Of a stretch of DNA of 34,557 bases, positions 521 through 34,557 are shown piece after piece. Source of the stretch: a virus. Below the pieces are notes generated by a model that worked only from the letters and a program-made list of their open reading frames with translations, had not been told where the DNA came from and made no database searches. Made by a program: the position numbers and the translations under genes. The stretch is taken from positions 1 through 34,557 of IMG/VR virus record IMGVR_UViG_3300035162_000704, one strand, 5' to 3'. Position 1 is the first letter of the stretch. The number at the start of each line of letters is the position of its first letter.

Positions 521-983
521 GCGGTCTAGATATACACCTAAGCCTGTGCGTTTGGACACTATGGCATATGTTTCTGAAAGCATTGAACCCATTGCCAGCA
601 GGACATCTTTTTACACAACACTGAACCTGAAGAACATGAGTGCGCTAGACAGCTTAGGCAAAGGTACTGCAACAAAGCTGGAGGCTGATGTTGTCATTGA
701 GGCTTTAAACGTCTGCGAGGCGTATTGCATGATGAATGTAGGGCGTGAGTACCGGCAAGATGTTTTAAACGCTCTGAGTGCCCTTCAGGACGTTTGTGTG
801 AGGTCTTTGACGTTAGAAGGTAAGTTCATTTGCCAAAACGACGAGTTTGAGTTGATTCAAGCTGGTTTTGATGTTCACGCTGCCCAACTAGAGGTGGCAA
901 CCATTGGGTCGCTGGAAACTGCAATCAAACTGGTCTTTAGCACACTAAAAGCAAAACGGGCAAAGGTAATTCAAGATGCGTAA
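513..983 (+). CDS. Conserved phage hypothetical protein (156 aa)
   Basis: ORF with ATGCGTAA-type overlap to the upstream stop. The N-terminus RKRSRYTPKP and the helical remainder resemble an uncharacterised family seen in lambdoid replication/nin regions. Confidence 0.7.
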   Translation: MRKRSRYTPKPVRLDTMAYVSESIEPIASRTSFYTTLNLKNMSALDSLGKGTATKLEADVVIEALNVCEAYCMMNVGREYRQDVLNALSALQDVCVRSLTLEGKFICQNDEFELIQAGFDVHAAQLEVATIGSLETAIKLVFSTLKAKRAKVIQDA

Positions 984-1296
984 AGCAATGTCAGTCAATG
1001 AGCAACTTTTGTGCAAAACGTGGTCACTGTTTACTTTTTCAGAGCGCGAAATGACCTCGCACGACCTTGCTTACGAGCTTGAAATCAGCATACGCACTGC
1101 GTATAAGTGGGTAAGAACCATCCATGAGTTTAGGCTTATATACATTTGCGGCTGGAAAGCTGACACCATTGGTCGATTCAATACCCCGATTTATGCCGCT
1201 GGAAACTTGATGGACAAGCCCAAGCCAAGGCGCACATTGCGCGACCGTAGACGGGCTTACAAGATCAAGACTGAAATTGCGAGGGTAGACAAATGA
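976..1296 (+). CDS. Small DNA-binding protein with a helix-turn-helix
   Basis: The segment HDLAYELEISIRTAYKWVRTI looks like an HTH. The ORF overlaps both neighbours. Confidence 0.6.
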   Translation: MRKAMSVNEQLLCKTWSLFTFSEREMTSHDLAYELEISIRTAYKWVRTIHEFRLIYICGWKADTIGRFNTPIYAAGNLMDKPKPRRTLRDRRRAYKIKTEIARVDK

Positions 1297-3300: not shown

Positions 3301-4926
3301 ATGCCATCAATCTTTGACGATCCAGAAGCCTATGCGTTTTCAGACGACAAAGAGGAAGACTTACGTCGCAAACTAACCAACCAGCAGGCTTTTAACGCCA
3401 TGTTGCAGGGTGTGGGCGACTTGCCATACAGTCTGCTTGGCGCACCTGTAGAGATTGGTACTGGGTTGCTTAGATCAATGGGCATGGCTCAAGGTGAGCA
3501 AGTTGGCGGAATTGATTACATCAAGAGAAAAGCTACTGAGCTAGGCATTAGACCACCAGACTCAACCGACCCAACAATGCGCGATATGCGTATGGGTGCT
3601 GAGATTGTTTCAGGCGCTATTGACCCAACAAGGGTCGCAAGGGTTGGTGGCGTAGCGGCAACGGCTGCGGCAAGAAAAGCTGCGCCTATGGTCGGCAATG
3701 CTATAGAAAACTACATGGTCAAGGCTGGGTTAGCCCCAAGAATAGTCCCAGAAGGTGGATTACTAAAAAGAGATATTCCGGTTAAGCCGTCTACTGACGA
3801 CGTTTATGAAGTTATGGAGTCCAGCTTTGATTTTGGGAAAGTTGGTGCTAACAAAAATATGTCACTAGAGGATTTAATTGGTGGCGTAAGGATGAACGAC
3901 CCGAAAGAAGCTCAAAGAGTTAATGAGCTTGCTCAAAAAATGTCTAGCCCAGACGGGTATGTTTCCAGAATATTAGTAGATGATTTGGGTAACGTTCTTG
4001 AAGGGCAACACCGGCTTGAGGCTTTAAGACTACTTGGAGAGAAAAACGCTCCTGTTACCATTATTCAAGATTTAAGCAATAAATATAATATTTCAGAAAT
4101 GAAACAAGCCATAAGTGGCCAAATGCGTTCAGATCAATCCAACCAACTTATCAGAGAGGCAATTGATGCCCTTGAAGATTCTGGAAGTGTGGAAAAAGCG
4201 TTGGCAGAGTATTCAATGCCAAGTTACTTACAAAAACCTTTTGAAGACGCAATTAAGGCTTCAAAAATAACCCCGGTAAGCGGCAAGTCAGCCGCGCCGC
4301 AAACGGAGGCTTTGAAGGTTGCCCAGAGCAATGCCGCTTTACCTGTTGAGCAAGGAGGTCTTGGACTACCTGCCAATAACACGCCTATGGACAGAGCTAA
4401 GGCAATGGGGTTTGATGTTGACACAATAAGATACCACGGATCAGATGTTGAAATACACGGCTTTGATCCCAAAAAGTTTGGTAAAAACGACCAAGGTTGG
4501 TATGGCAGAGGAGTAACTACAGACACAGACCCAGAAATAGCAGCAGGATATGCGGATTACAACCAGCCGGAATCTGGCCAAGTAATTTACCCTTTGTTAA
4601 CAAAAGGTAAATACATGAACTGGCCTGATGGCCAGCCGCCATTTTCTTCTGCAAAAGATGCAATTGCTGGGACAAAAGATATGCAAAACTTGGGTTATTC
4701 TGGTACAAGAATAACAAATGACAGGGATTTATATGGCTCTACTCCTGATTTTGGTACGGAGCAGGTAACATTTCAGCCGCAAAACGTTCGTTCAGTAAAC
4801 GCTGCATTTGACCCACTAAGAAAGAATGACGCAGACTTACTTGCTGGAATAGGGGCTGGCGGTCTATTAGCAGTAGATGATGAAACAAAGCAGAAAGTGC
4901 AAAGTCTGTTAGGATACTCACAATAA
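3301..4926 (+). CDS. Polyvalent-type protein: ParB-like nuclease/N-terminal-domain module plus ART-PolyVal-like ADP-ribosyltransferase-like module
   Basis: aa 187-256: MSLEDLIGG...YVSRILVDDLGNVLEGQHRLEALRLLGEKNAPVTII (ParB N-domain pattern). aa 361-505: MGFDVDTIRYHGSDVEIHGFDPKKFG...GWYGRGVTTDTDPEIAAGYA...GYSGTRI...TEQVTFQPQNVRSVNAAFDP (ART-in-polyvalent-protein pattern). Confidence 0.6.
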   Translation: MPSIFDDPEAYAFSDDKEEDLRRKLTNQQAFNAMLQGVGDLPYSLLGAPVEIGTGLLRSMGMAQGEQVGGIDYIKRKATELGIRPPDSTDPTMRDMRMGAEIVSGAIDPTRVARVGGVAATAAARKAAPMVGNAIENYMVKAGLAPRIVPEGGLLKRDIPVKPSTDDVYEVMESSFDFGKVGANKNMSLEDLIGGVRMNDPKEAQRVNELAQKMSSPDGYVSRILVDDLGNVLEGQHRLEALRLLGEKNAPVTIIQDLSNKYNISEMKQAISGQMRSDQSNQLIREAIDALEDSGSVEKALAEYSMPSYLQKPFEDAIKASKITPVSGKSAAPQTEALKVAQSNAALPVEQGGLGLPANNTPMDRAKAMGFDVDTIRYHGSDVEIHGFDPKKFGKNDQGWYGRGVTTDTDPEIAAGYADYNQPESGQVIYPLLTKGKYMNWPDGQPPFSSAKDAIAGTKDMQNLGYSGTRITNDRDLYGSTPDFGTEQVTFQPQNVRSVNAAFDPLRKNDADLLAGIGAGGLLAVDDETKQKVQSLLGYSQ

Positions 4927-23200: not shown

Positions 23201-23688
23201 TAACAGCATTTAAAGAGTACACGATTGGAGTCGGTGGCGGTATATCTTCAGCCTTATCAGGTGCGCTGCTGCAAGGTAACAACTTGTCTGATGTGCTCGA
23301 TGCTGCAACTGCAAGAACAAATTTAAGTGTTGTTGGCATAACAGATACACAGACGCTGACAAACAAGACCATCACTGGTGTTGTTGAGACTAAGGTGGCA
23401 ATGGCAGCACACGCTATTGACCTGTCCTTAGGCAACTACTTCACCTACACTTTGTCTGGCGCTCAAACACTAACTGTCAGTAACGTAGCTGCTAGTGGCT
23501 CTGTAAGTGCATTTGTGCTTGAAGTGACCAATGGTGGCTCTGCTGCCTTGACATTCTTTAGTGGCGTGACTTGGGCTGCTGCTACACCTCCTACACTTAC
23601 CGCTGCTGGTGTTGACAACCTAGCCTTCTTTACCTCAGACGGTGGCACGACTTGGAGAGGCTTTGTCCTTGGATTGGGGATGGCGTAA
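20284..23688 (+). CDS. Tail fibre protein (1134 aa)
   Basis: Three copies of the fibre motif ...L(A/G)xPxxxxDAA(T/S)KxY(V/T/I)D, a GNVT repeat tract, NNLSDVLDAATARTNLSV and an A/S/T-rich coiled segment. Confidence 0.85.
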   Translation: MAKTKISEFDATQINNTDIDNINIAEGCAPSGINNAIRELMAQLKDFQTGTAGDSLTVGGNLAVTGTSTHTGALAANGGITGTTAVVSSLTVNTSAVIASADINAGTIDGAVIGGAAAQAVTGTLITASTGFVGGVTGAVVGNVTGNVTGSVTGNVVGNLIGNVTGDVTGNVTATTGTTTLADVIIRGGLDMDAGTSATITNLAAPTNSGDAATKGYTDAQTALKLSLSGGTMSGAIAMGANKITGLGTPTADADAASKIYVDGLVQGLDAKASCVAASTANLTLSGAQTIDGVSVVAGNRVLVKDQSTASANGIYVAAAGAWARSTDADTWDELVSAFVFVEGGTANADNGFTCTNNAGGTLGSTAVTWVQFSGAGQITAGDGLSKTGNTINVGTAAAGRIVVNADNIDLATTGISAGTYRSVTIDAYGRATAGTTPTTISGYSISDAYTKTEIDTTVSGLLAKTGGTMSGAIALGTNKLTGVGDPTSAQDAATKNYIDVLFGSTTSAAASAATAATRAGEAATSAGNASTSETNASASATAANDSKIAAAASYDAFDDRYLGSKSSSPSVDNDGNALLTGALYWDTTASQMRVYTGNSWVATGSAVNGTTSREVYTANSSQTTFAVVYDAGYVDVYLNGVKLVAGTDFTATSGTNIVLATAATDGDIVDIVAYGAFALADVYTKAASDARYATAAQGAGTGVTSTYVSSVTVGGTTFAQPAVTGEINSDEGFVQVNYAGATGITVTTLTSASTYVYIDKNGALQQQTTEPTRQDWSRKMFTMRIAVDTTTNLVLGFEYLNNPIGRYANSIRDVYSFLLSNGVPFKKDQTVTGRAGDLGFDVSAGTMLEFGGTGDIYDPNILSFSSVANAAFFLSTRTAFDAGGNTNLPKFWDNAGTITALGSTTVVGHRLYRFSNGNICLQYGQGNYANMTLAKTGALLEDYVLNPALENATFFGWWFIESTATNTAGTTLTAFKEYTIGVGGGISSALSGALLQGNNLSDVLDAATARTNLSVVGITDTQTLTNKTITGVVETKVAMAAHAIDLSLGNYFTYTLSGAQTLTVSNVAASGSVSAFVLEVTNGGSAALTFFSGVTWAAATPPTLTAAGVDNLAFFTSDGGTTWRGFVLGLGMA
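20683..20802 (+). repeat. Ten tandem 12-nt units encoding G-[NGASD]-[VL]-[TVI]
   Basis: GGVT GAVV GNVT GNVT GSVT GNVV GNLI GNVT GDVT GNVT read in frame. This tract generates the spurious antisense ORF 20409..20936. Confidence 0.9.
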
Positions 23689-25592
23689 TGGCTATCAGAG
23701 ATATTGTACAAGCCGCTGCTGGTGCTGGTGAAGATAAGCTGTATGTTGACGATGTGTTCTCAACTTACTTATATACAGGCAACAGCTCCACCCAGACAAT
23801 CAACAACGGTATTGACTTAGATGGTAAGGGTGGGTTGATTTGGGGTAAAGTTCGAAATTCAGTAGACAATAATTGGTTGATTGATACGGCGCGTGGAGCA
23901 TCAAAAGTATTAGCATCTAATCTGAACGCAGCACAAACTACACCGGGCCCGCCAGATTGGGTTTCTTTTAATAACAACGGATTTTCAATTGGTGCATCAA
24001 ACGGAGAAATAAATCAATCATCACAAACATATGTTTCATGGACGCTCCGCAAGAGTCCTAAATATTTTGACATTGTGACCTACACGGGGAATGGAAGTAC
24101 ACAAAACATTTCTCATAGCCTTGATACACAGCCGGGTTGCGTGATGATTAAAAAGACAAGCGGCGCTGGGGATTGGATGATATGGCATAGAGGTTTGTCA
24201 GCGGGTCACTACATTCGATTTACTACAGCGGCACAGAATAATTCATTTAACGATGCGTACTTTGGCAACAGCACTACTTATGTAGACCCCACATCAACAC
24301 AGTTTACTGTTGGTTATGGAGACTTAGTAAACTCCAATGGCGCAACTTTCGTCGCATACGTCTTTGCCCATGATGCTGGCGGCTTCGGGGACGATGGTGA
24401 GCAAGATGTTATTAGCTGTGGGAGTTTTACTACTGATGGCAGTGGTAATGCTATTGTTAATTTAGGGTATGAGCCTCAATGGGTTTTGGTAAAACCAGCA
24501 AGTACCGCTGGACAGTGGCGACTCTTTGATACCATGCGGGGGTTTAGTCACTCAAGTGCTGCCATGTTATTACCAAACCTTGCTAATGCAGAGGGCGTTA
24601 ATACTACTGCTGAAAGGTATTTTCCAACCGCAACTGGTTTTAATCTTACCCCTTATGATGCAGGCGGTGTTACAAGCATGTACATGGCCATTCGCCGCCC
24701 AATGAAAACTCCTGAGGCGGGAACTGAGGTGTTTGCTATGGATACTCAAGGAGGTTCTTCTGGAAAACCTAATTTCAAAAGTGGGTTTCCTGTGGATTTT
24801 GCTTTTGTAGCTGAGACTGGTGGGAGTGCAAGATTAAATAGCAGTCGCTTAACTTCTCCAAAGATAATGTATTTTAATAATACTAATGCAGAATCATCTG
24901 ACGCAGAGCGAACGTTTGATTATCAAAATGGATGGGGCAACAGCACTGATGTTGATTCAACACGCTACTCATGGATGTTTAAACGCGCCCCCGCCTTTAT
25001 GGATGTGGTGGCTTTTACACAAGTTGGGACTGGAAGTGTTCAAACGATTAACCATAACTTAACAGTTGTGCCAGAGTTAATTATATTTAAAACAAGGGGC
25101 GGAGGAGATAACTGGAGAGTTCGTGTTGGCTCGTATTCGGGAGGTGGAATTCTTAACTCAAATAGTGGATTTTCATCTAGTTTATATGCCACAAACCTTA
25201 CATCAACTACTTTTGGCTTTAATCAAAGTACGGCGGGGTATAACAGCGGAATGACTTTTGTATCCTACCTATTCGCCACCCTAGCAGGTGTAAGTTGCGT
25301 ATCTAGCTACAGCGGAACTGGCGGTAACGTAAATGTGGATTGTGGCTTCAGCGGGGGTGCAAGGTTCATCTTAATCAAACGAACTGACTCCACTGGTGAT
25401 TGGTATTTGTGGGACTCAGCTAGAGGCATCGTGGCTGGCAATGACCCATACTTGCTCTTGAACACCACAGCGGCTCAAGTGACCAACACAGATTACATTG
25501 ACCCATTGGCAAGTGGCTTTACCGTAACATCATCAGCACCAGCGGCATTGAATGCAAGTGGTGGCAGCTACATCTTCTTGGCAATAGCTTAA
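23688..25592 (+). CDS. Receptor-binding-type distal tail protein, paralogue 1 (634 aa, six internal repeats)
   Basis: TAATG coupling to the fibre gene. Full-length paralogue of 26085..28052, with identical nucleotide runs at both ends. Confidence 0.7.
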   Translation: MAIRDIVQAAAGAGEDKLYVDDVFSTYLYTGNSSTQTINNGIDLDGKGGLIWGKVRNSVDNNWLIDTARGASKVLASNLNAAQTTPGPPDWVSFNNNGFSIGASNGEINQSSQTYVSWTLRKSPKYFDIVTYTGNGSTQNISHSLDTQPGCVMIKKTSGAGDWMIWHRGLSAGHYIRFTTAAQNNSFNDAYFGNSTTYVDPTSTQFTVGYGDLVNSNGATFVAYVFAHDAGGFGDDGEQDVISCGSFTTDGSGNAIVNLGYEPQWVLVKPASTAGQWRLFDTMRGFSHSSAAMLLPNLANAEGVNTTAERYFPTATGFNLTPYDAGGVTSMYMAIRRPMKTPEAGTEVFAMDTQGGSSGKPNFKSGFPVDFAFVAETGGSARLNSSRLTSPKIMYFNNTNAESSDAERTFDYQNGWGNSTDVDSTRYSWMFKRAPAFMDVVAFTQVGTGSVQTINHNLTVVPELIIFKTRGGGDNWRVRVGSYSGGGILNSNSGFSSSLYATNLTSTTFGFNQSTAGYNSGMTFVSYLFATLAGVSCVSSYSGTGGNVNVDCGFSGGARFILIKRTDSTGDWYLWDSARGIVAGNDPYLLLNTTAAQVTNTDYIDPLASGFTVTSSAPAALNASGGSYIFLAIA

Positions 25593-25611: not shown

Positions 25612-26088
25612 ATGAGTAAAGCAAAAATACTAGCAACAACCGTTTCGGATGGTAACGTGCTGGCAGACGGTACGGTTGCCTATGCAGAAGTGAGCGGCAC
25701 ACCAACGCTTCCTACATTCCCTAGCGGCACTGTTGTAGGTACAACGGATACACAGACATTATCCGGTAAGACCATCACAAACCTAATCAATGACGGGTCT
25801 ATCACTGAAGAAGTGTACACGTTAACAGGTACAGCGATTGATCCATCTAACGGCACAATCCAAGTCAAGGCTCTGTCAGGCATTGTGACATTGACAGACT
25901 CAGTAAGTGCTGGTCAGAGTGTTGTGCTGATGATTACTGGCGGCGCTTCCTATGCCATTACATGGCCTACAATGACATGGGTGACTAGTGGTGGCAACGT
26001 AGCTCCTACGTCTACGGCTAGTGATACCTTTGTCTTGTGGAAAATCAGCACCACGCTGTACGGTGCTTATGTAGGTAACTATGTATGA
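25612..26088 (+). CDS. Stand-alone homologue of the tail-fibre C-terminal domain (158 aa)
   Basis: TDTQTLSGKTITN...AIDPSNGT...LSGIVTLTDS...ITGGASYAITW aligns with fibre residues ITDTQTLTNKTITG...AIDLSLGN...LSGAQTLTVS...VTNGGSAALTF. Confidence 0.7.
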   Translation: MSKAKILATTVSDGNVLADGTVAYAEVSGTPTLPTFPSGTVVGTTDTQTLSGKTITNLINDGSITEEVYTLTGTAIDPSNGTIQVKALSGIVTLTDSVSAGQSVVLMITGGASYAITWPTMTWVTSGGNVAPTSTASDTFVLWKISTTLYGAYVGNYV

Positions 26089-28052
26089 GCAAGTTAGCTA
26101 AGACGTTACAGGCTGCTGCGGGTAATGCTGGTGGGGATAAGCTGTATGTTGACGATGTGTTCTCAACTTACTTATATACAGGCACGGGTTCAGCAATAAC
26201 AATCACCAACGGGATTGATCTGGCTGGTGAAGGCGGCATGGTTTGGAATAAATGCCGAACATCAGCAACAAACCACGCAATGTCAGATACAGAAAGAGGC
26301 ATACCTTCAACTCTTAAACCTAACAAAACACAGGGAGAAAGCACAAGCACAGGATATTTTACATCTTTTAACTCAGATGGCTGGTCAATGGGAGGTAACA
26401 CAGAAACTAACTTAGCAAATGAACAGTTTGCCTCATGGACATGGCGCAAGAGTCCTAAATATTTCGACATTGTGACCTACACAGGGAATGGTGTTGCAAG
26501 AACTATTGCACATTCACTTGGCTCTGTGCCGGGAATGATTATTGTTAAATCTACAACTTATGGTTTAGGGTGGCCTGTTTATCATCGCTCTTTGGGGCAA
26601 TACACAAACACGCTTTACCTTGACGCTACTTCTTCGGCAGGCGCAAGTAAATGGAATGAGCAATTACCAACAGACTCAGCTTTTCCAATTAGCGCCAATG
26701 ATTATGTAAATAAAGCTGGTGAAACTTATGTGGCTTATCTCTGGGCCCATGATGCTGGGGGCTTTGGGGACGATGGTGAGCAGAATGTAATTAGCTGTGG
26801 GAGTTTTACTTGTGATGCTGTTGGTAGTGCAACTGTTAGCCTTGGATATGAGCCTCAATTTGTCATAATGAAAAAAGCAGATGGCGGCGCACAAGATTGG
26901 ATTACGCTTGATGTATTACGGGGTTGGTCACAAACATCGGACAACTATTTAAGGCCAAATTCGTCAGCCGCAGAAGTGGCGTCTTCGGGGCTAGGATTTC
27001 CGACCGCAACAGGATTTACAGAAGCGGGGTTGGGTAGCTCAGGCTCAACATACATCTACATGGCAATTCGCCGCCCAATGAAAACTCCGGCAAGTGGGAC
27101 TGAGGTGTTTGCTCCTGTATCAAGAACAGGGAATGCATCAGTAACTACCGTATCAGCAGGGTTTGCTCCTGACTTTGTTTTAAGTAATAATACGTCAAAC
27201 GGGGCAAGTAACCGAAGGATAGTGGGTACAAAACTAATAGGAACTACAAACTACTTACGAACAGAAACCACTGCCTCTGAATTAGTGGGTAGGGCTGACG
27301 CTGTTACTTCATACACTAATAGTGGAATAGTTTTAGGGGCTGATGTAGATACTGCGGCTTTTAATACTAATAATTTCCCTTATATTCTTTATATGATGCG
27401 CCGTGCCCCATCCTTTATGGATGTAGTTTGCTATACAGGGACGGGAAGTGGTGCAAACACTGTAACGCATGGGCTAACAGTCGCCCCTGAACTGCTTATA
27501 ACAAAGATACGCAGTGGAGGTACTGAATCTGGTGTGGGTGGTTGGGGGGTGTACGCAGCACCTTTAACTATTGCAAAAGTTTTAGAGCTTAATGCTACAA
27601 CCGCTAGTGCATCAGATAATTGGTTTAGCGGAAACACTGGTGATGAAGCTGCGCCGACATCTACGCAGTTTACAGTTTGGGGTAATGATCCACACTCAAA
27701 TAGGGCAAACGGTAACTACGCAGCCTACCTCTTCGCCAGCCTAGCTGGTGTAAGTAAAATTGCCAGCTACAGCGGAACTGGTAATTTTGTAAATGTTGAT
27801 TGTGGTTTTGCTGCTGGTGCTCGGTTCGTGATGATTAAGCGCACTGACTCCACTGGTGATTGGTATGTATGGGACTCAGCTAGAGGTATTGTTGCTGGTA
27901 ATGATCCATATCTGCTTCTTAATAGCGCAGTTGCTCAAGTGACCAACACTGATTACATTGACCCATTGGCAAGTGGCTTTACCGTAACATCATCAGCGCC
28001 AGCGGCTTTAAATGCTTCAGGTGGCACTTACATTTTCTTGGCAATAGCGTAA
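26085..28052 (+). CDS. Receptor-binding-type distal tail protein, paralogue 2 (655 aa, six internal repeats)
   Basis: ATGA coupling to 25612..26088. It shares DKLYVDDVFSTYLYTG, RKSPKYFDIVTYTGNG, AHDAGGFGDDGEQ.VISCGSFT, YMAIRRPMKTP and the last ~90 aa with paralogue 1. Confidence 0.7.
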   Translation: MSKLAKTLQAAAGNAGGDKLYVDDVFSTYLYTGTGSAITITNGIDLAGEGGMVWNKCRTSATNHAMSDTERGIPSTLKPNKTQGESTSTGYFTSFNSDGWSMGGNTETNLANEQFASWTWRKSPKYFDIVTYTGNGVARTIAHSLGSVPGMIIVKSTTYGLGWPVYHRSLGQYTNTLYLDATSSAGASKWNEQLPTDSAFPISANDYVNKAGETYVAYLWAHDAGGFGDDGEQNVISCGSFTCDAVGSATVSLGYEPQFVIMKKADGGAQDWITLDVLRGWSQTSDNYLRPNSSAAEVASSGLGFPTATGFTEAGLGSSGSTYIYMAIRRPMKTPASGTEVFAPVSRTGNASVTTVSAGFAPDFVLSNNTSNGASNRRIVGTKLIGTTNYLRTETTASELVGRADAVTSYTNSGIVLGADVDTAAFNTNNFPYILYMMRRAPSFMDVVCYTGTGSGANTVTHGLTVAPELLITKIRSGGTESGVGGWGVYAAPLTIAKVLELNATTASASDNWFSGNTGDEAAPTSTQFTVWGNDPHSNRANGNYAAYLFASLAGVSKIASYSGTGNFVNVDCGFAAGARFVMIKRTDSTGDWYVWDSARGIVAGNDPYLLLNSAVAQVTNTDYIDPLASGFTVTSSAPAALNASGGTYIFLAIA

Positions 28053-29921: not shown

Positions 29922-30373
29922 AGCTATCAGCTAATTTTTCACTTAACGAGCTAACCAAGAGTGAGACAGCGACCCGCAACGGCATTTTTAACACACCATC
30001 AGCGCTGGTCATTGGAAAGCTGCAAGCATTGACTGACAACATCCTGCAACCATTGCGCGACAAGTTTGGCCCGGTCATTGTCACAAGTGCGTATCGTTCG
30101 CCAGAGGTTAACAAGGCTGTTGGGGGAAGCACCAGTTCGCATCACTGTTTTGGGTTTGCAGCCGACTTTGAGGTGCTTGGTATGGACAATCGCGAATTAG
30201 CTCTATACATCAGGGATTCGCTAACCTATACCCAGTTAATACTTGAGTATTACAATGGCGACCCAGATTCAGGCTGGGTGCATTGCAGCTATGACGCAGC
30301 CGACCTAAAGTGCCAAACACTAACTGCCAGACGGGTCAACGGGCGCACCCAGTACAGCAACGGGATTCTTTAA
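29918..30373 (+). CDS. Endolysin, peptidase M15 family (Zn D,D- or L-Ala-D-Glu peptidase type)
   Basis: SAYRSPEVNKAVGGSTSSHHCFGFAADF...GWVHCSY gives the H/D/H zinc-ligand pattern of M15 phage lysins. Confidence 0.85.
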   Translation: MKLSANFSLNELTKSETATRNGIFNTPSALVIGKLQALTDNILQPLRDKFGPVIVTSAYRSPEVNKAVGGSTSSHHCFGFAADFEVLGMDNRELALYIRDSLTYTQLILEYYNGDPDSGWVHCSYDAADLKCQTLTARRVNGRTQYSNGIL

Positions 30374-30508
30374 CCGGCCAGCAACGGCTACCTCTCTTGT
30401 TGAAAAGAGGTGGCTGTTTGCGCAAATGTAGCGTCTGTAAGTTGAGCCATTAGTGCGCTGCCTAGTCTCCTTTACTTCGCACCATGCTTGGCACTCCGGG
30501 CATATCAT
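30320..30508 (-). CDS. Small zinc-ribbon protein (62 aa), Ogr/Delta-like N-terminal pattern
   Basis: MICPECQAWCEVKETRQRTNGSTYRRYICANSHLFSTRE (CxxC...C..H). ATGA coupling to the upstream gene. The 3' 54 nt overlap the endolysin gene antisense. Confidence 0.55.
   Translation of the reverse strand: MICPECQAWCEVKETRQRTNGSTYRRYICANSHLFSTREVAVAGRLKNPVAVLGAPVDPSGS
30386..30415 (+). terminator. Weak hairpin at the convergence point of the late and early-left arms
   Basis: GGCTACCTCT-N10-AGAGGTGGCT (two G-U pairs) followed only by GTTTG. It lies inside minus-strand ORF 30320..30508. Confidence 0.35.
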
Positions 30509-31540: not shown

Positions 31541-31575
31541 TTCAATCTCCTGTTATGGGGCTTGCGCCCCGTTGG

Positions 31576-31767
31576 TTATTTCTTTTGGATGTTTGTTGGT
31601 GAGTAGGGCTGTGGAACATCGCCGCACCAGCGACCATCATGTGTTGCCAAAACTCTTTTGGGGGTGAAGCCAAAAACCACACCAGTGCAAACTGTGCCTT
31701 GGTAGTTGACCCAAACCGCATCTCCGATTGAGATTCCTTTTTCTGTCATTTGTTGTTGGGCGGTCAT
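31576..31767 (-). CDS. Hypothetical early protein (63 aa), first gene of the second leftward operon
   Basis: GGAG SD inside the conserved leader. Confidence 0.65.
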   Translation of the reverse strand: MTAQQQMTEKGISIGDAVWVNYQGTVCTGVVFGFTPKRVLATHDGRWCGDVPQPYSPTNIQKK

Positions 31768-31780
31768 TTTAGTCTCCAGT

Positions 31781-31820
31781 TGTGTTGCGATGTGTTTATT
31801 CTAATACACATAACAACACA
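31781..31820 (-). promoter_or_regulatory. 40-bp dyad operator-like element over the second leftward promoter (-10 TAGAAT at 31798-31803)
   Basis: The plus strand reads TGTGT tgcga TGTGT ttattctaat ACACA taaca ACACA. Bases 31779-31799 are identical to 33619-33639. Confidence 0.55.
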
Positions 31821-31853
31821 AAGGGAAGCTATTTTTAACTATTTTCTAGGTGA

Positions 31854-31991
31854 TTACCCTAACGCCTTCCTGACTAGATACACAATTTGCCCACTGACAG
31901 AACGGGCCTCTGCCTTGGCTTGCGTTTGTACTTGCGCGTACAAATCAATAGGGAATCGCAGGGTAACAAATTTTAATAACATTTTTTCCAT
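31854..31991 (-). CDS. Arc/CopG-type ribbon-helix-helix DNA-binding protein (45 aa, not in the ORF track)
   Basis: MEKMLLKFVTLRFPIDLYAQVQTQAKAEARSVSGQIVYLVRKALG shows the beta-strand/helix/helix pattern of Arc-like repressors. AAGGTA SD after the ssb-like stop. Confidence 0.6.
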   Translation of the reverse strand: MEKMLLKFVTLRFPIDLYAQVQTQAKAEARSVSGQIVYLVRKALG

Positions 31992-32003
31992 AATATTTAC
32001 CTT

Positions 32004-32255
32004 TTAAAACGGCATGTCATCATCAAAGTCTGGTGCAGGCGCTGGCCTTGCGGCAGGCGGTGCGGCTTGCTGTTGCTCTTTAGGCTGGAAGCTGAACGAC
32101 ATAAATTTTGTGCCATTTGCGCCAGTCTTGAGCCAAGCGCTCATCCACATTTCCACGCCATTTATCATGGCAGAGCCTTTGTAGTCTGGGTGGGTCTCTT
32201 TTTGCTTTTCATTTTTGAACAGCGAACCTGAGTTGGGTCGTATTTCGTAAGCCAT
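32004..32255 (-). CDS. Mini ssDNA-binding-like protein with an SSB-type acidic C-terminal tip (83 aa)
   Basis: It ends in PAPDFDDDMPF, which matches the canonical SSB-Ct D-D-D-[IM]-P-F. AAGGAA SD. It lies two genes downstream of Erf in the same leftward operon. Confidence 0.55.
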   Translation of the reverse strand: MAYEIRPNSGSLFKNEKQKETHPDYKGSAMINGVEMWMSAWLKTGANGTKFMSFSFQPKEQQQAAPPAARPAPAPDFDDDMPF

Positions 32256-32551: not shown

Positions 32552-33160
32552 CTAGTCTTTCTTTTTGAGTGATGCGCGGGTCTTAGAGTCCAGCAGCGTC
32601 CACAGAGCAAGTTTCTGGGCTTCTTCTAAGTTAGCGCTAATGACAATCTGTTTAGCCTTGGCTGGGTCTTCTGTGACCGCCTCTCTCAGCACATCAGATA
32701 GCTCCACCAGTTCGCTCATTTCGTCATCTGTGACCAACTCGCGTGCGCCTTGGTTTGGCGTAATGATTGGGTCTTTCTTGGCTTCTAGCGGCTTGCTTGC
32801 GTCTAATATGTCATGCTCCACAATCTCTAGCGCAGCCATCCACAAGTACCTACGGTTGTACGTCTCAACAGCGCCCAAGTTTTGGATGGGGTGAACGCCT
32901 TTTAAGCTGGCATCAGCCATCGGGCTGGTGATAACAATTTCGGTTTGGTCGTGTACGTCTGTGATTGTCAGGATAGCCAATTCCTTGCCAAAACTCACGT
33001 AGCCGCACAAACCAATGCGAAAAAAGATGCTTTGAATCTGTGGCAAGAAATCGCTCAGTTCAAAATAGTTGTATCCAGCAAACTTGTTTTTGCCCGACTT
33101 GCTCAGTTTCTCTGCTTGCAGGTCAACCCTTGCCTGCATCAGCTTTAAATGTACGCTCAT
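32552..33160 (-). CDS. erf: Erf-family single-strand annealing protein
   Basis: KNKFAGYNYFELSDFLPQIQSIF...GAVETYNRRYLWMAALEIVEHD matches the ERF-superfamily pattern. AAGGGGA SD. Confidence 0.8.
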   Translation of the reverse strand: MSVHLKLMQARVDLQAEKLSKSGKNKFAGYNYFELSDFLPQIQSIFFRIGLCGYVSFGKELAILTITDVHDQTEIVITSPMADASLKGVHPIQNLGAVETYNRRYLWMAALEIVEHDILDASKPLEAKKDPIITPNQGARELVTDDEMSELVELSDVLREAVTEDPAKAKQIVISANLEEAQKLALWTLLDSKTRASLKKKD

Positions 33161-33375: not shown

Positions 33376-33606
33376 TTAGTTGTTCCATGAGAATTCGGGC
33401 TTGCTTTCCTGCCAAGCCCTGTCTACCTCTGCTTTTAGTTCTGCTTCTAGTCCCAACACAGTGACACCAAAATGCAGGGCAACAGCCGCTACAGAGACGG
33501 CGTATATTTTGTCACTGTCGTCCCAGCCGTTATGCTGCATCTCCTGCATCTCATGGTCAAGCATCTCTACTGCCTCATCGATGTCTATGGTTTTAATATC
33601 TTGCAT
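33376..33606 (-). CDS. Hypothetical early protein (76 aa), first gene of the leftward arm
   Basis: I prefer ATG 33606, preceded by AACAGGAGATTGAAA, over the track start at 33657. Confidence 0.6.
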   Translation of the reverse strand: MQDIKTIDIDEAVEMLDHEMQEMQHNGWDDSDKIYAVSVAAVALHFGVTVLGLEAELKAEVDRAWQESKPEFSWNN

Positions 33607-33620
33607 TTTCAATCTCCTGT

Positions 33621-33660
33621 TGTGTTGCGATGTGTTTATAGTATCATACAAATTCACACA
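33621..33660 (-). promoter_or_regulatory. 40-bp dyad operator-like element over the first leftward promoter (extended -10 TGaTACTAT on the minus strand, 33638-33646)
   Basis: The plus strand reads TGTGT tgcga TGTGT ttatagtatc ATACA aattc ACACA. Same architecture as 31781-31820. Confidence 0.55.
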
Positions 33661-33666
33661 AAAGCT

Positions 33667-33680
33667 AGGTGTTTACACCT
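33667..33680. promoter_or_regulatory. 14-bp palindrome AGGTGT-TT-ACACCT in the divergent control region
   Basis: Perfect 6-bp arms read directly. It lies between the leftward and rightward promoter candidates. Confidence 0.4.
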
Positions 33681-33681
33681 A

Positions 33682-33711
33682 TTCACAAAAATAATTTTAA
33701 ACTCACATAAT
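33682..33711 (+). promoter_or_regulatory. Candidate rightward promoter TTCACA-N18-CATAAT
   Basis: The hexamers are read directly. The -10 ends 5 nt before ATG 33717, which has no SD. Confidence 0.35.
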
Positions 33712-33716
33712 CCAGC

Positions 33717-33893
33717 ATGAACCAAACATTTCAAGACTTTATGGCCGACCTTACGGTACTTGTTCGGAATCAGCCGGACACTGACATTGAGGCGGTCTTG
33801 TGGCTTAACAGCCTGACTTATAACTGCGTCATGGCTGCTGAAAAAATACAGCGCAATGACCTAAGCAAAGAGAATTTTGGAGGTACAGATTGA
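33717..33893 (+). CDS. Hypothetical 58-aa protein, first rightward ORF (possibly leaderless)
   Basis: MNQTFQDFMADLTVLVRNQPDTDIEAVLWLNSLTYNCVMAAEKIQRNDLSKENFGGTD. No SD. Below the track cutoff. Confidence 0.4.
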   Translation: MNQTFQDFMADLTVLVRNQPDTDIEAVLWLNSLTYNCVMAAEKIQRNDLSKENFGGTD

Positions 33894-33915: not shown

Positions 33916-34016
33916 TTTTACAGACGCGGCTAGGTTGGGATTTGCTCCCCGACCGAAAGGAGTTACCCCTTCTCTTGCCGTTGTTTCTTTCAAAGGGCGT
34001 TAAAAAAGGAAGCATC

Positions 34017-34226
34017 ATGGGCTTTGGATTTTTCAGGGAAAACCGTCTTCGCGTCTACGGCGATGGAGAGGGCAACATTGTTATCGCGGAATACATTGAT
34101 GACGATTGTGAAGTACCAATCAACAAAATTACTATTTCTTGGGAGCGCTTTGAGCAATTCCAAAACTACTTTAATGATTTAAGGGTGGAGGCGTTCGCCT
34201 CAAGTGAGGTCAGTGATGAAGCCTAA
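34017..34226 (+). CDS. Hypothetical protein (69 aa)
   Basis: AAGGAAG SD before ATG 34017, which is internal to track ORF 33942..34226. It overlaps the start of the replication gene. Confidence 0.6.
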   Translation: MGFGFFRENRLRVYGDGEGNIVIAEYIDDDCEVPINKITISWERFEQFQNYFNDLRVEAFASSEVSDEA

Positions 34227-34557
34227 AAATTGGACGCACTTTCAGCACTACAAAGACCGCTGCCCACCTTGGATTAAATTGCATAAAGAGTTGTTAAACG
34301 ACCGTTCTTTTATGACTCTGCCAACCGCTAGCAAGGCGCTAGCACCTTTGTTGTGGTTGCTAGCAAGTGAGACAAAGGACGGCTCATTTGATGCCTCTAT
34401 TGATGAGTTGGTGTTTCGACTGCGTATGCCTGAGTCTGACATTAAGACTGGACTCAAGTCTTTGATTGATAAAGGTTTTTTTATTGACGATAGCAACGTG
34501 CTAGCAGACCGCTATCAAGATGCTATACCAGAGACAGAGACAGAGACAGAGACAGAG
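34216..34557 (+). CDS. Replication initiation protein, N-terminal part. The gene continues across the circular junction into 2..520, about 244 aa in total.
   Basis: ATG at 34216 overlaps the stop of the upstream ORF. The reading frame runs through the overlap into ORF 32..520. N-terminal sequence: MKPKNWTHFQHYKDRCPPWIKLHKELLNDRSFMTLPTASKALAPLLWLLASE, typical of phage replication/DnaD-O-like N-termini. Confidence 0.75.
   Translation, partial: MKPKNWTHFQHYKDRCPPWIKLHKELLNDRSFMTLPTASKALAPLLWLLASETKDGSFDASIDELVFRLRMPESDIKTGLKSLIDKGFFIDDSNVLADRYQDAIPETETETETE
34431..34557. repeat. Right copy of the 127-bp terminal overlap
   Basis: Identical to bases 1-127. Confidence 0.95.

Follow-up and report, generated by a model that had tools for sequence, protein, structure and literature searches.

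An Arc-like ribbon-helix-helix gene beside a promoter that appears to lie within a conserved RNA hairpin in an uncultured aquatic phage

What is the role of a four-box dyad that surrounds the -10 element of a promoter and adjoins the gene for a small protein with the features of a repressor? The question is raised by the early region of a virus recorded in IMG/VR as IMGVR_UViG_3300035162_000704, of which positions 1 to 34,557 (34,557 nucleotides, referred to here as the window) were analyzed. On the minus strand a ribbon-helix-helix (RHH) gene of 45 amino acids (aa) closes the first of two leftward early operons, and the dyad lies between it and the first gene of the second. The original prediction, made from the letters of the DNA without database searches, took the dyad to be the operator of the RHH protein. 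The gene is real, and the Arc-like RHH fold of its product is confirmed by structural modeling. The conserved dyad, judged by comparison of related loci, looks to be chiefly an RNA hairpin with a promoter in its loop, and not mainly a protein operator. We consider it somewhat more likely than not that the Arc-like regulator acts elsewhere and that the dyad is a promoter-in-hairpin which gates the second operon.

The RHH gene (31854..31991, minus strand) begins with ATG, ends with a TAA stop codon at 31854-31856 and encodes MEKMLLKFVTLRFPIDLYAQVQTQAKAEARSVSGQIVYLVRKALG. A Shine-Dalgarno (SD)-like AAGG (32000..32003, minus strand) is found 8 nt upstream of the ATG, and AAGGAG or AAGGAA occupies the same place before the gene in relatives. 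The plus-strand open reading frame (ORF) that covers the same region (31750..32007) exists and has no Pfam hit. The product matches RHH_5 (PF07878) over residues 9-44 with 34.7 bits against a gathering score of 26, and Arc-like PHROG families also match. The Pfam Arc model (PF03869) is below threshold at 16.6 vs 20.4 bits; a weak ParD_like match (19.1 bits, below 23) and hits to partition-protein PHROGs all fall on the RHH domain. The 66 homologs are almost all metagenomic, with one NCBI entry named 'Arc family DNA-binding protein'; they are annotated with PF07878 and some additionally with PF03869.

A phmmer search of the protein against PDB sequences gave no hit, and a profile of the family gave weak RHH hits with Mnt, AmrZ, HP0222 and Arc ranking first. 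In these alignments the turn RSVSGQ is in register with RSVNSE of Arc (GRSVNSE with the preceding residue) and aligns with the turn of Mnt as well, and the strand end LRFP (LRxP in the family) is in register with LRWP of Arc. AlphaFold2, run with a 51-sequence alignment, predicted a monomer with a pLDDT of 93.9, in which residues 1-14 are extended and residues 15-27 and 32-44 form helices. An earlier run with a 6-sequence alignment, which gave one long helix at a pLDDT of 74, was superseded by this model. The best Foldseek matches in the PDB were chains of P22 Arc (1baz, 1bdv and 1par; TM 0.72-0.79, probability ~1, 26-30% identity), followed by AmrZ, RHH antitoxins and CopG; the best matches of the whole set, Arc included, have TM 0.7-0.8. 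The product is presumably a dimeric DNA-binding regulator. The genome thus gains a previously unannotated regulator gene, whose product is a new member of a known family.

The position of the gene is conserved. In all contigs read, the order is ERF, further genes, RHH, a gap and then small genes, and the ERF operon always closes with the RHH gene, as had been proposed for the window. A toxin-antitoxin reading was rejected, as there is no adjacent partner gene: the upstream neighbor is SSB-like, and downstream follow the promoter and hairpin and then a 63-aa protein with no match to a toxin family in Pfam or PHROG searches.

The promoter-like element with a conserved -10 that had been noted after the RHH gene is present, and it recurs at the head of the first operon. 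On the minus strand the copy beside the RHH gene (31820..31781) reads TGTGT-tgtta-TGTGT-attagaataa-ACACA-tcgca-ACACA, with the central -10 TAGAAT (31798..31803, minus strand) of the second leftward promoter, exactly as first described. The copy at the head of the first leftward operon (33621..33660, minus strand) reads TGTGT-gaatt-TGTAT-gatactataa-ACACA-tcgca-ACACA from 33660 to 33621. It comprises a leader at 33621-33635, the -10 TACTAT at 33638-33643 and degenerate left boxes at 33646-33660; this other copy of the dyad, noted earlier, does exist, with one box degenerate (TGTAT). Both copies lie within a 77-nt direct repeat (31767-31843 vs 33607-33683) of 74% identity. They have an exact 21-mer in common, and the exact 15-mer ACACATCGCAACACA occurs at both and nowhere else in the window. 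The dyad adjoins the gene as stated, although the gap from the stop codon to the first box is 33 nt and not 34. The boxes were also said to be one helical turn apart. This holds within each arm, where they are 10 bp apart and flank the -10, but the inner boxes are 15 bp apart center to center and hence on opposite faces of the helix.

The two arms of the dyad have very different distributions. The right arm, ACACATCGCAACACAA (31780..31795, minus strand), begins 2 nt after the -10, and its 14-mer core ACACATCGCAACAC is found at 31781-31794 and 33621-33634. A scan of 2.9 million viral contigs for this core gave 119 loci, and a metagenome scan for the right-arm motif gave at least 120 loci of the same two classes; single loci are designated here by L-numbers. 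In many of the 119, an RHH homolog with 33-98% identity lies 40-75 nt upstream of the motif. Many others have no RHH gene and carry TTGACA-17-TATAAT-NN-ACACATCGCAACAC-...-SD-ATG before unrelated small genes, in contigs with a GC content of 0.40-0.65. The 14-mer stands 2 nt past the -10 in L011, L012, L016, L023, L026, L030, L039, L075, L094, L105, L108, L192 and many others. In the unbiased viral scan, TAnnnT ended exactly 2 nt upstream of the 14-mer in 38 of 106 distinct occurrences, where about 1.7 were expected; other offsets had 1-5 occurrences each. Among the metagenome matches listed, one contig has three right-arm promoters within 1.2 kb. The -35 regions also differ between the classes, with 62 of the 91 promoters of RHH-less loci matching TTGACA at 5-6 of 6 positions and promoters of RHH-carrying loci never exceeding 4/6.

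The 89 promoter-context loci listed (550 kb examined) contain neither an RHH ORF nor a left arm. Since the right arm is found in so many RHH-less promoters, it is not specific to this RHH protein. By its sequence context it would be the discriminator, start-site and leader block of a widespread type of promoter; in the phage group of the window, ACACATCGCAACACA would represent the start-site and 5' leader region common to all early promoters. Rfam gave no match at either dyad at E values up to 5, and a full-text search of the literature found no paper containing the motif string. The 14-nt block, shared by dozens of otherwise unrelated phage promoters, is the most novel item found, and is a possible marker of early promoters in metagenomic phage contigs.

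The strong promoters of phage T5, in which conserved transcribed regions affect promoter clearance, offer a precedent. 'Downstream regions' of conserved transcribed sequence were reportedly described for the T5 promoters PN25, P25 and P26 by Kammerer, Deuschle, Gentz and Bujard in 1986. The likeness is a short conserved block just past the start in several early promoters, independent of the gene that follows. The difference is that here an identical 14-mer, from about -4, is found across lineages that differ in GC content and -35 regions. This fixed 2-nt offset among unrelated flanks could mean that ACACATCGCAACAC, together with the dyad, is the site of another trans-acting factor, such as a host protein, another phage regulator (for instance the winged-helix-like proteins of the rightward operon), RNA polymerase or the ribosome. 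Some protein families, for example one of 122-aa winged-helix-like proteins and that of window ORF 513-983, are common to RHH-carrying and RHH-lacking loci that have the leader motif. We regard this explanation as most unlikely for the dyad, given that no factor was identified and that it would account for the right arm but for neither the left arm nor the anti-SD tract described below. A scan of bacterial genomes for the -10 plus the 14-mer gave 12 hits, mostly without promoter context, one of them a contig of a Halieaceae metagenome-assembled genome (MAG) with the RHH/hairpin module; this rarity makes a host regulon unlikely. A promoter for a phage RNA polymerase was also considered, AATTAGGG...CTAG being loosely like K11 and SP6 promoters. 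The idea was dropped because no RNA polymerase gene turned up among the ORFs examined with Pfam and PHROG.

The left arm, TTGTGTTGTTATGTGT (31806..31821, minus strand), is conserved solely at sites following the RHH gene, the ones that read-through RNA would cover. It is the complement of the right arm, and in RNA it would form the 5' strand of a hairpin (31770..31831, minus strand) comprising outer UAG/CUA pairs, an anti-SD helix, both arms and a loop that contains the -10. In the DNA the same left arm is the spacer of the internal promoter. The anti-SD tract UUCC (31824..31827, minus strand), at about the -35 position of that promoter, pairs with GGAG (31774..31777, minus strand), the SD of the first gene of the second operon. 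The predicted fold in the window has an energy of -23.7 kcal/mol and a z-score of -5.67, with none of 200 shuffled sequences as stable, and the GGAG is fully paired.

The same structure is predicted in the relatives. Among 45 distinct post-RHH regions, 44 from within the clade and one, L075, from outside it, the sense-strand hairpin is found in all 44 in-clade regions (z -2.6 to -7.2, mean -4.7). At least 3 of the 4 nt of the next gene's SD are paired to an upstream pyrimidine tract in 40/45, and the sense fold is more stable than the antisense fold in 40/45. The stem at the operon boundary is near-perfect and 16-25 bp long, and the loop of 7-11 nt contains TAnnnT in all relatives (TAGAAT, TATACT, TATAAT or TATGAT). 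In contrast, operon-head promoters of the same type, which have no upstream transcription, show a mean z of -1.5 and no strand bias, and the first copy in the window gives no significant RNA hairpin (z -1.12).

Where the arms have changed, their pairing has been preserved. The commonest left arm, TGTGTTGTGGTGTG, pairs through G.U wobbles. When the regions were aligned with a covariance model, 85.9% of the cells paired, compared with 29-64% when partner columns were slid, and there were 65 G.U cells as against 9 A.C cells. Both arms have changed in L090/L198, where CUCCUGUUUGG pairs with CCAAACAGGAG in 11 contiguous pairs that include the SD, in L102 (GUGUUGGUGGUG with CACCAUCAACAC) and in L276 (UCUCUUGUUGGUUGUGGUU with AAUCAUCAGCAACCAACAGGAGA). 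The changes in L156 are mainly on the right arm, and wobble pairs keep GUGUGUUGUGGUG paired with ACCAUUGCAACACAC. RNAalifold applied to a plain MAFFT alignment of the post-RHH regions returned no structure, owing to register errors in the repetitive TG/AC arms, and was replaced by folding of the individual sequences and the covariance-model alignment.

The proposed mechanism would work as follows. The RHH protein would be the final product of the first leftward early operon, in which ERF and the SSB-like protein are encoded as well. Transcripts that read through from this operon would hold both arms, and since the upstream pyrimidine tract is the complement of the next gene's SD, an inhibitory helix would form over the ribosome-binding site. 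Transcripts from the internal promoter, with start sites placed from the -10 only, would begin about 7 nt past the -10, inside the right arm. RNA beginning there is predicted to be unstructured with the SD region unpaired, and would be open for translation as it lacks the left arm. Read-through RNA from the ERF/RHH operon would thus be translationally silent, possibly then subject to polarity, and the second operon would be expressed from its own promoter only. The -10/leader geometry of the putative promoter in the hairpin is the same as that of operon-head promoters and of the canonical TTGACA-17-TATAAT promoters elsewhere.

Such a device has precedents in phage T4. The genes e (lysozyme), soc, 49 and I-TevI have a hairpin that sequesters the SD in long transcripts started upstream (Uzan and Miller, 2010; PMC3014915). 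A promoter located within the DNA that specifies the 5' strand yields transcripts that do not carry the inhibitory strand and are translated (Uzan and Miller, 2010). The dyad resembles these genes in having the SD within a hairpin of the long RNA, a promoter within the DNA for the 5' strand and loop, and a structure conserved among relatives, although here these features are predicted from sequence. It differs in that its internal promoter is sigma-70-like (-10 TAGAAT) while that of T4 is a gp55 late promoter, that an entire early or delayed-early operon, not a single late gene, would be gated, and that the 3' arm doubles as the start-region element of all early promoters. To our knowledge, promoter-in-hairpin gates have been documented so far mainly in T4-type phages. 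The dyad would be a new example of this known RNA device; the gate appears to be conserved across the whole clade and would insulate the second early operon, whose last gene may encode a late-gene activator.

A long stem at an operon boundary could also be an element of RNA processing or stability, either an RNase III site that splits the operons or a structure that protects or terminates the first-operon mRNA at its 3' end. RNase III processes both the early mRNAs of T7 and the N leader of lambda at stems of this type. Like these sites, the hairpin has a long stem that takes in a ribosome-binding region at a boundary in early polycistronic RNA, and cleavage in the stem would also free the SD. 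The difference is the promoter in the loop, which those sites do not have. The consistent inclusion of the SD in the stem and the conserved -10 in the loop are specific predictions of a gate of the T4 type, and we consider a processing or stability element distinctly unlikely as the main function. An intrinsic terminator was rejected: the stem is followed by ACUAAAAUG and no U-tract, so that it is not of the canonical type, and a terminator scan found none between the RHH gene and the hairpin or at 31770-31831.

If the dyad is chiefly the promoter-in-hairpin favored here, where would the RHH protein bind? Most likely it acts on DNA elsewhere, and the best candidate site is a palindrome of the type TAGG-N7/8-CCTA. 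One example, TAGGGTAATCACCTA (31847..31861; TAGG-N7-CCTA), overlaps the stop codon of the RHH gene and is separated by 43 nt from the second promoter's -10, which lies downstream. Another, the perfect palindrome TAGGTGTAAACACCTA (33666..33681), stops 22 nt before the first leftward promoter's -10 and directly borders the -35 of a candidate rightward promoter (TTCACA-18-CATAAT, 33682..33711, plus strand, 10/12 match). The conserved form upstream of leftward promoters is TA(A/G)GG-N-YYTA. It is present at 42 of the 45 distinct leader promoters of RHH-carrying loci, compared with 6/64 elsewhere. The distances between it and the -10 fall into two groups, of 22-25 and of 42-43 nt, which differ by about two helical turns. 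After the RHH gene it overlaps the stop codon in two reading-frame registers, as L-G-stop TTAGGGTAA or K-stop AAGTAGGG, which argues for a DNA or RNA signal and not a coding constraint. The phasing, the placement at the expected site of a -35 and the absence of -35 matches from the clade together suggest a protein site that works with RNA polymerase. On these circumstantial grounds, TAGG-N7/8-CCTA is a better candidate operator for the RHH protein than the dyad. Bound there, the protein could autoregulate its own operon and perhaps the second as well.

A separate palindrome was seen at an extra early promoter in L056 (8841), L038 (482), L081 (521), L229 and L257. It is perfect over 11-12 bp, has the form GTGTTTATCTT-N-AAGATAAACAC and spans the -10 and the first ACAC of the leader. 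Its antisense RNA is more stable than the sense RNA, and from its sequence it looks like a genuine DNA operator.

The original prediction likened the arrangement in the window to the immI region of phage P22. In P22, Arc is transcribed from, and represses, the antirepressor promoter Pant, and the genes for Mnt and Ant are adjacent. The proteins are indeed alike: the RHH protein has 45 aa and Arc 53, both have the strand-helix-helix plan, and both are phage-encoded beside a promoter. The immI circuit, however, is not matched. Neither Mnt nor the antirepressor (Ant) was recognized among the genes examined with Pfam and PHROG; upstream are genes for ERF, a 96-aa protein and the SSB-like protein, and downstream are those of small proteins of unknown family. 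The RHH gene ends an ERF/SSB recombination operon and does not stand behind the promoter that it was proposed to repress. The presumed base contacts are F/T/R, as against Q/N/R in Arc. The Arc operator, with two TAGA-type subsites (TAGA-N5-TCTA) between -35 and -10, is 21 bp long and is bound by a tetramer, while the dyad has 40 bp and four boxes. TAGG-N7/8-CCTA resembles the Arc sequence only loosely, and its place is upstream of the -35 position.

On the model of Arc at Pant, dimers of RHH dimers would shut off both leftward promoters by binding the four TGTGT/ACACA boxes that surround the -10 of each. The spacing of the boxes within the arms and their position beside the -10 suit this model. 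The dyad promoter always follows the RHH gene directly, also in those distant relatives that have no palindrome at that place, and the presumed DNA-facing residues of the strand (F/Y, T/S, R) are conserved across the RHH groups that have the motif. The evidence as a whole did not support the dyad as the RHH operator. The right arm stands at the same offset in the dozens of RHH-less promoters described above, the symmetry of the dyad is confined to post-RHH sites, and an operator does not explain pairing that reaches the SD. The boxes are lost in L276, L090 and L102 while complementarity is kept and the strand residues are unchanged or conservatively changed; in L276 the ACACA/TGTGT boxes are gone and the strand (KFVTMRLP) is unchanged. 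The loop length varies over 7-11 nt, and the inner boxes are on opposite helix faces. The timed shut-off of both operons by the RHH protein is a conjecture.

Several observations nevertheless weigh against the promoter-in-hairpin and a distant site of RHH action. Two-sided covariation in the fitted alignment was not above that of shuffles (2 pairs, score 0.119 vs 0.132). This is attributed to the right arm, which barely varies, and the argument relies instead on wobble bias, on the pairing of the SD, on the lineages in which the arms have changed and on how operon-head promoters differ. The excess of G.U cells represents few independent events in an alignment fitted to the structure, and most of the sequences were found through the right arm. 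In the window the antisense fold is about as stable as the sense fold (-25.2 vs -23.7 kcal/mol), so that a DNA palindrome could be present there. The first copy in the window keeps three of four boxes at the same spacing, as does the close relative L206. In two loci outside the clade, L075 (10259-10514) and L273 (2940-3183), RHH_5 homologs with 33-39% identity are the first genes after a TTGACA promoter whose leader is the same or similar, and the promoter spacer has ACACA-like direct repeats at 10-11 bp spacing. This arrangement hints that the RHH family may recognize such boxes, and the two homologs may, from their position, be autoregulated. The palindrome, for its part, has decayed or is lacking after the RHH gene in some relatives (L056, L276), the spacing of its arms varies by 1-2 nt, and its co-occurrence with the RHH gene may reflect shared ancestry, as the RHH-carrying phages form one clade. 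Because of the equal fold stabilities, the boxes of the first copy and the loci L075 and L273, binding of the boxes by the RHH protein is retained as an unlikely reading. A palindrome that flanks a promoter beside a repressor gene is not necessarily the operator of that repressor.

A tentative proposal, which we place on the improbable side, joins some of these elements. The 14-nt block would be a new start-site or leader recognition element for a trans-acting factor, be it the RHH family, another phage protein or a host component. The RHH clade would then have added the complementary strand, and the RHH gene with its palindrome, to gate and time the second operon.

The window contains the entire circular genome, about 34.4 kb in size, of an uncultured aquatic phage. 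Its first 127 nt (1-127) are repeated exactly at 34431-34557, a terminal overlap that indicates a circular assembly of ~34,430 bp. A (CAGAGA)n hexamer run lies at the circular junction (99-140). Genes on the plus strand encode NinB, NinG, a large terminase, an SU10-type portal, a scaffold, a major head protein, tail fibers and an M15 endolysin. Neither an integrase nor a CI-type repressor was found among the ORFs examined in Pfam and PHROG searches. No close cultured relative was found among 50,697 GenBank phages by megablast of the early region or by tblastn of the RHH protein and ORF 3301-4926. One related contig lies within the Halieaceae MAG, and several relatives come from TARA and other aquatic metagenomes. 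The clade is one of uncultured aquatic lambdoid-like podoviruses (ERF/SSB/NinB/NinG, SU10-type portal), and the present findings open temporal control to study in phages without a cultured representative.

The small early genes form two leftward blocks, 33606 to 31854 and 31767 to 30320. The first gene of the first block (33376..33606, minus strand) encodes 76 aa from the ATG at 33606 and has the SD GGAG at 33614-33617. ERF is encoded at 32552-33160, and the SSB-like protein of 83 aa at 32004-32255 on the minus strand. The latter ends in an acidic DDDMPF tail; acidic tails of this kind are typical of the partner-binding tips of SSB. The first gene of the second block (31576..31767, minus strand) encodes the 63-aa protein of no known family. 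The last (30320..30508, minus strand) encodes a 62-aa Ogr/Delta-like CxxC...CxxxH zinc finger whose match to PF04606 is sub-threshold (20.7 bits, E 3.9e-4, gathering score 26.3). This family is present in 48 related loci, and from its similarity the protein may be a late-gene activator.

A G+C-rich stem-loop (31555-31572, GGGGCGCAAGCCCC on the minus strand) separates two second-operon genes and stands immediately ahead of AGGAG. L003 has the same hairpin in the corresponding position, and L276 has a similar one before a promoter. It could be a stabilizer, a processing site, an attenuator or a terminator for plus-strand transcription.

On the plus strand, an ATG at 33717 lies 5 nt past the -10 of the candidate rightward promoter and has no SD, so that the rightward transcript may be leaderless. 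The 58-aa product is of unknown family and is conserved in 40 related loci. Farther downstream, at 33923-33997 (plus strand), there is a sub-threshold Rfam match to int-alpA RNA (28.5 bits vs a gathering score of 35.8, E 0.006), which sits upstream of ORF 33942-34226 and overlaps its start. ORF 976-1296 (plus strand) has a short similarity to the 122-aa winged-helix-like family. Two tandem paralogous segments of about 2.4 kb (23328-25592 vs 25731-28052), with 71-83% identity in blocks, cover tail-fiber-like genes of 646 aa and 655 aa (DUF7483), which suggests a duplicated receptor-binding module.

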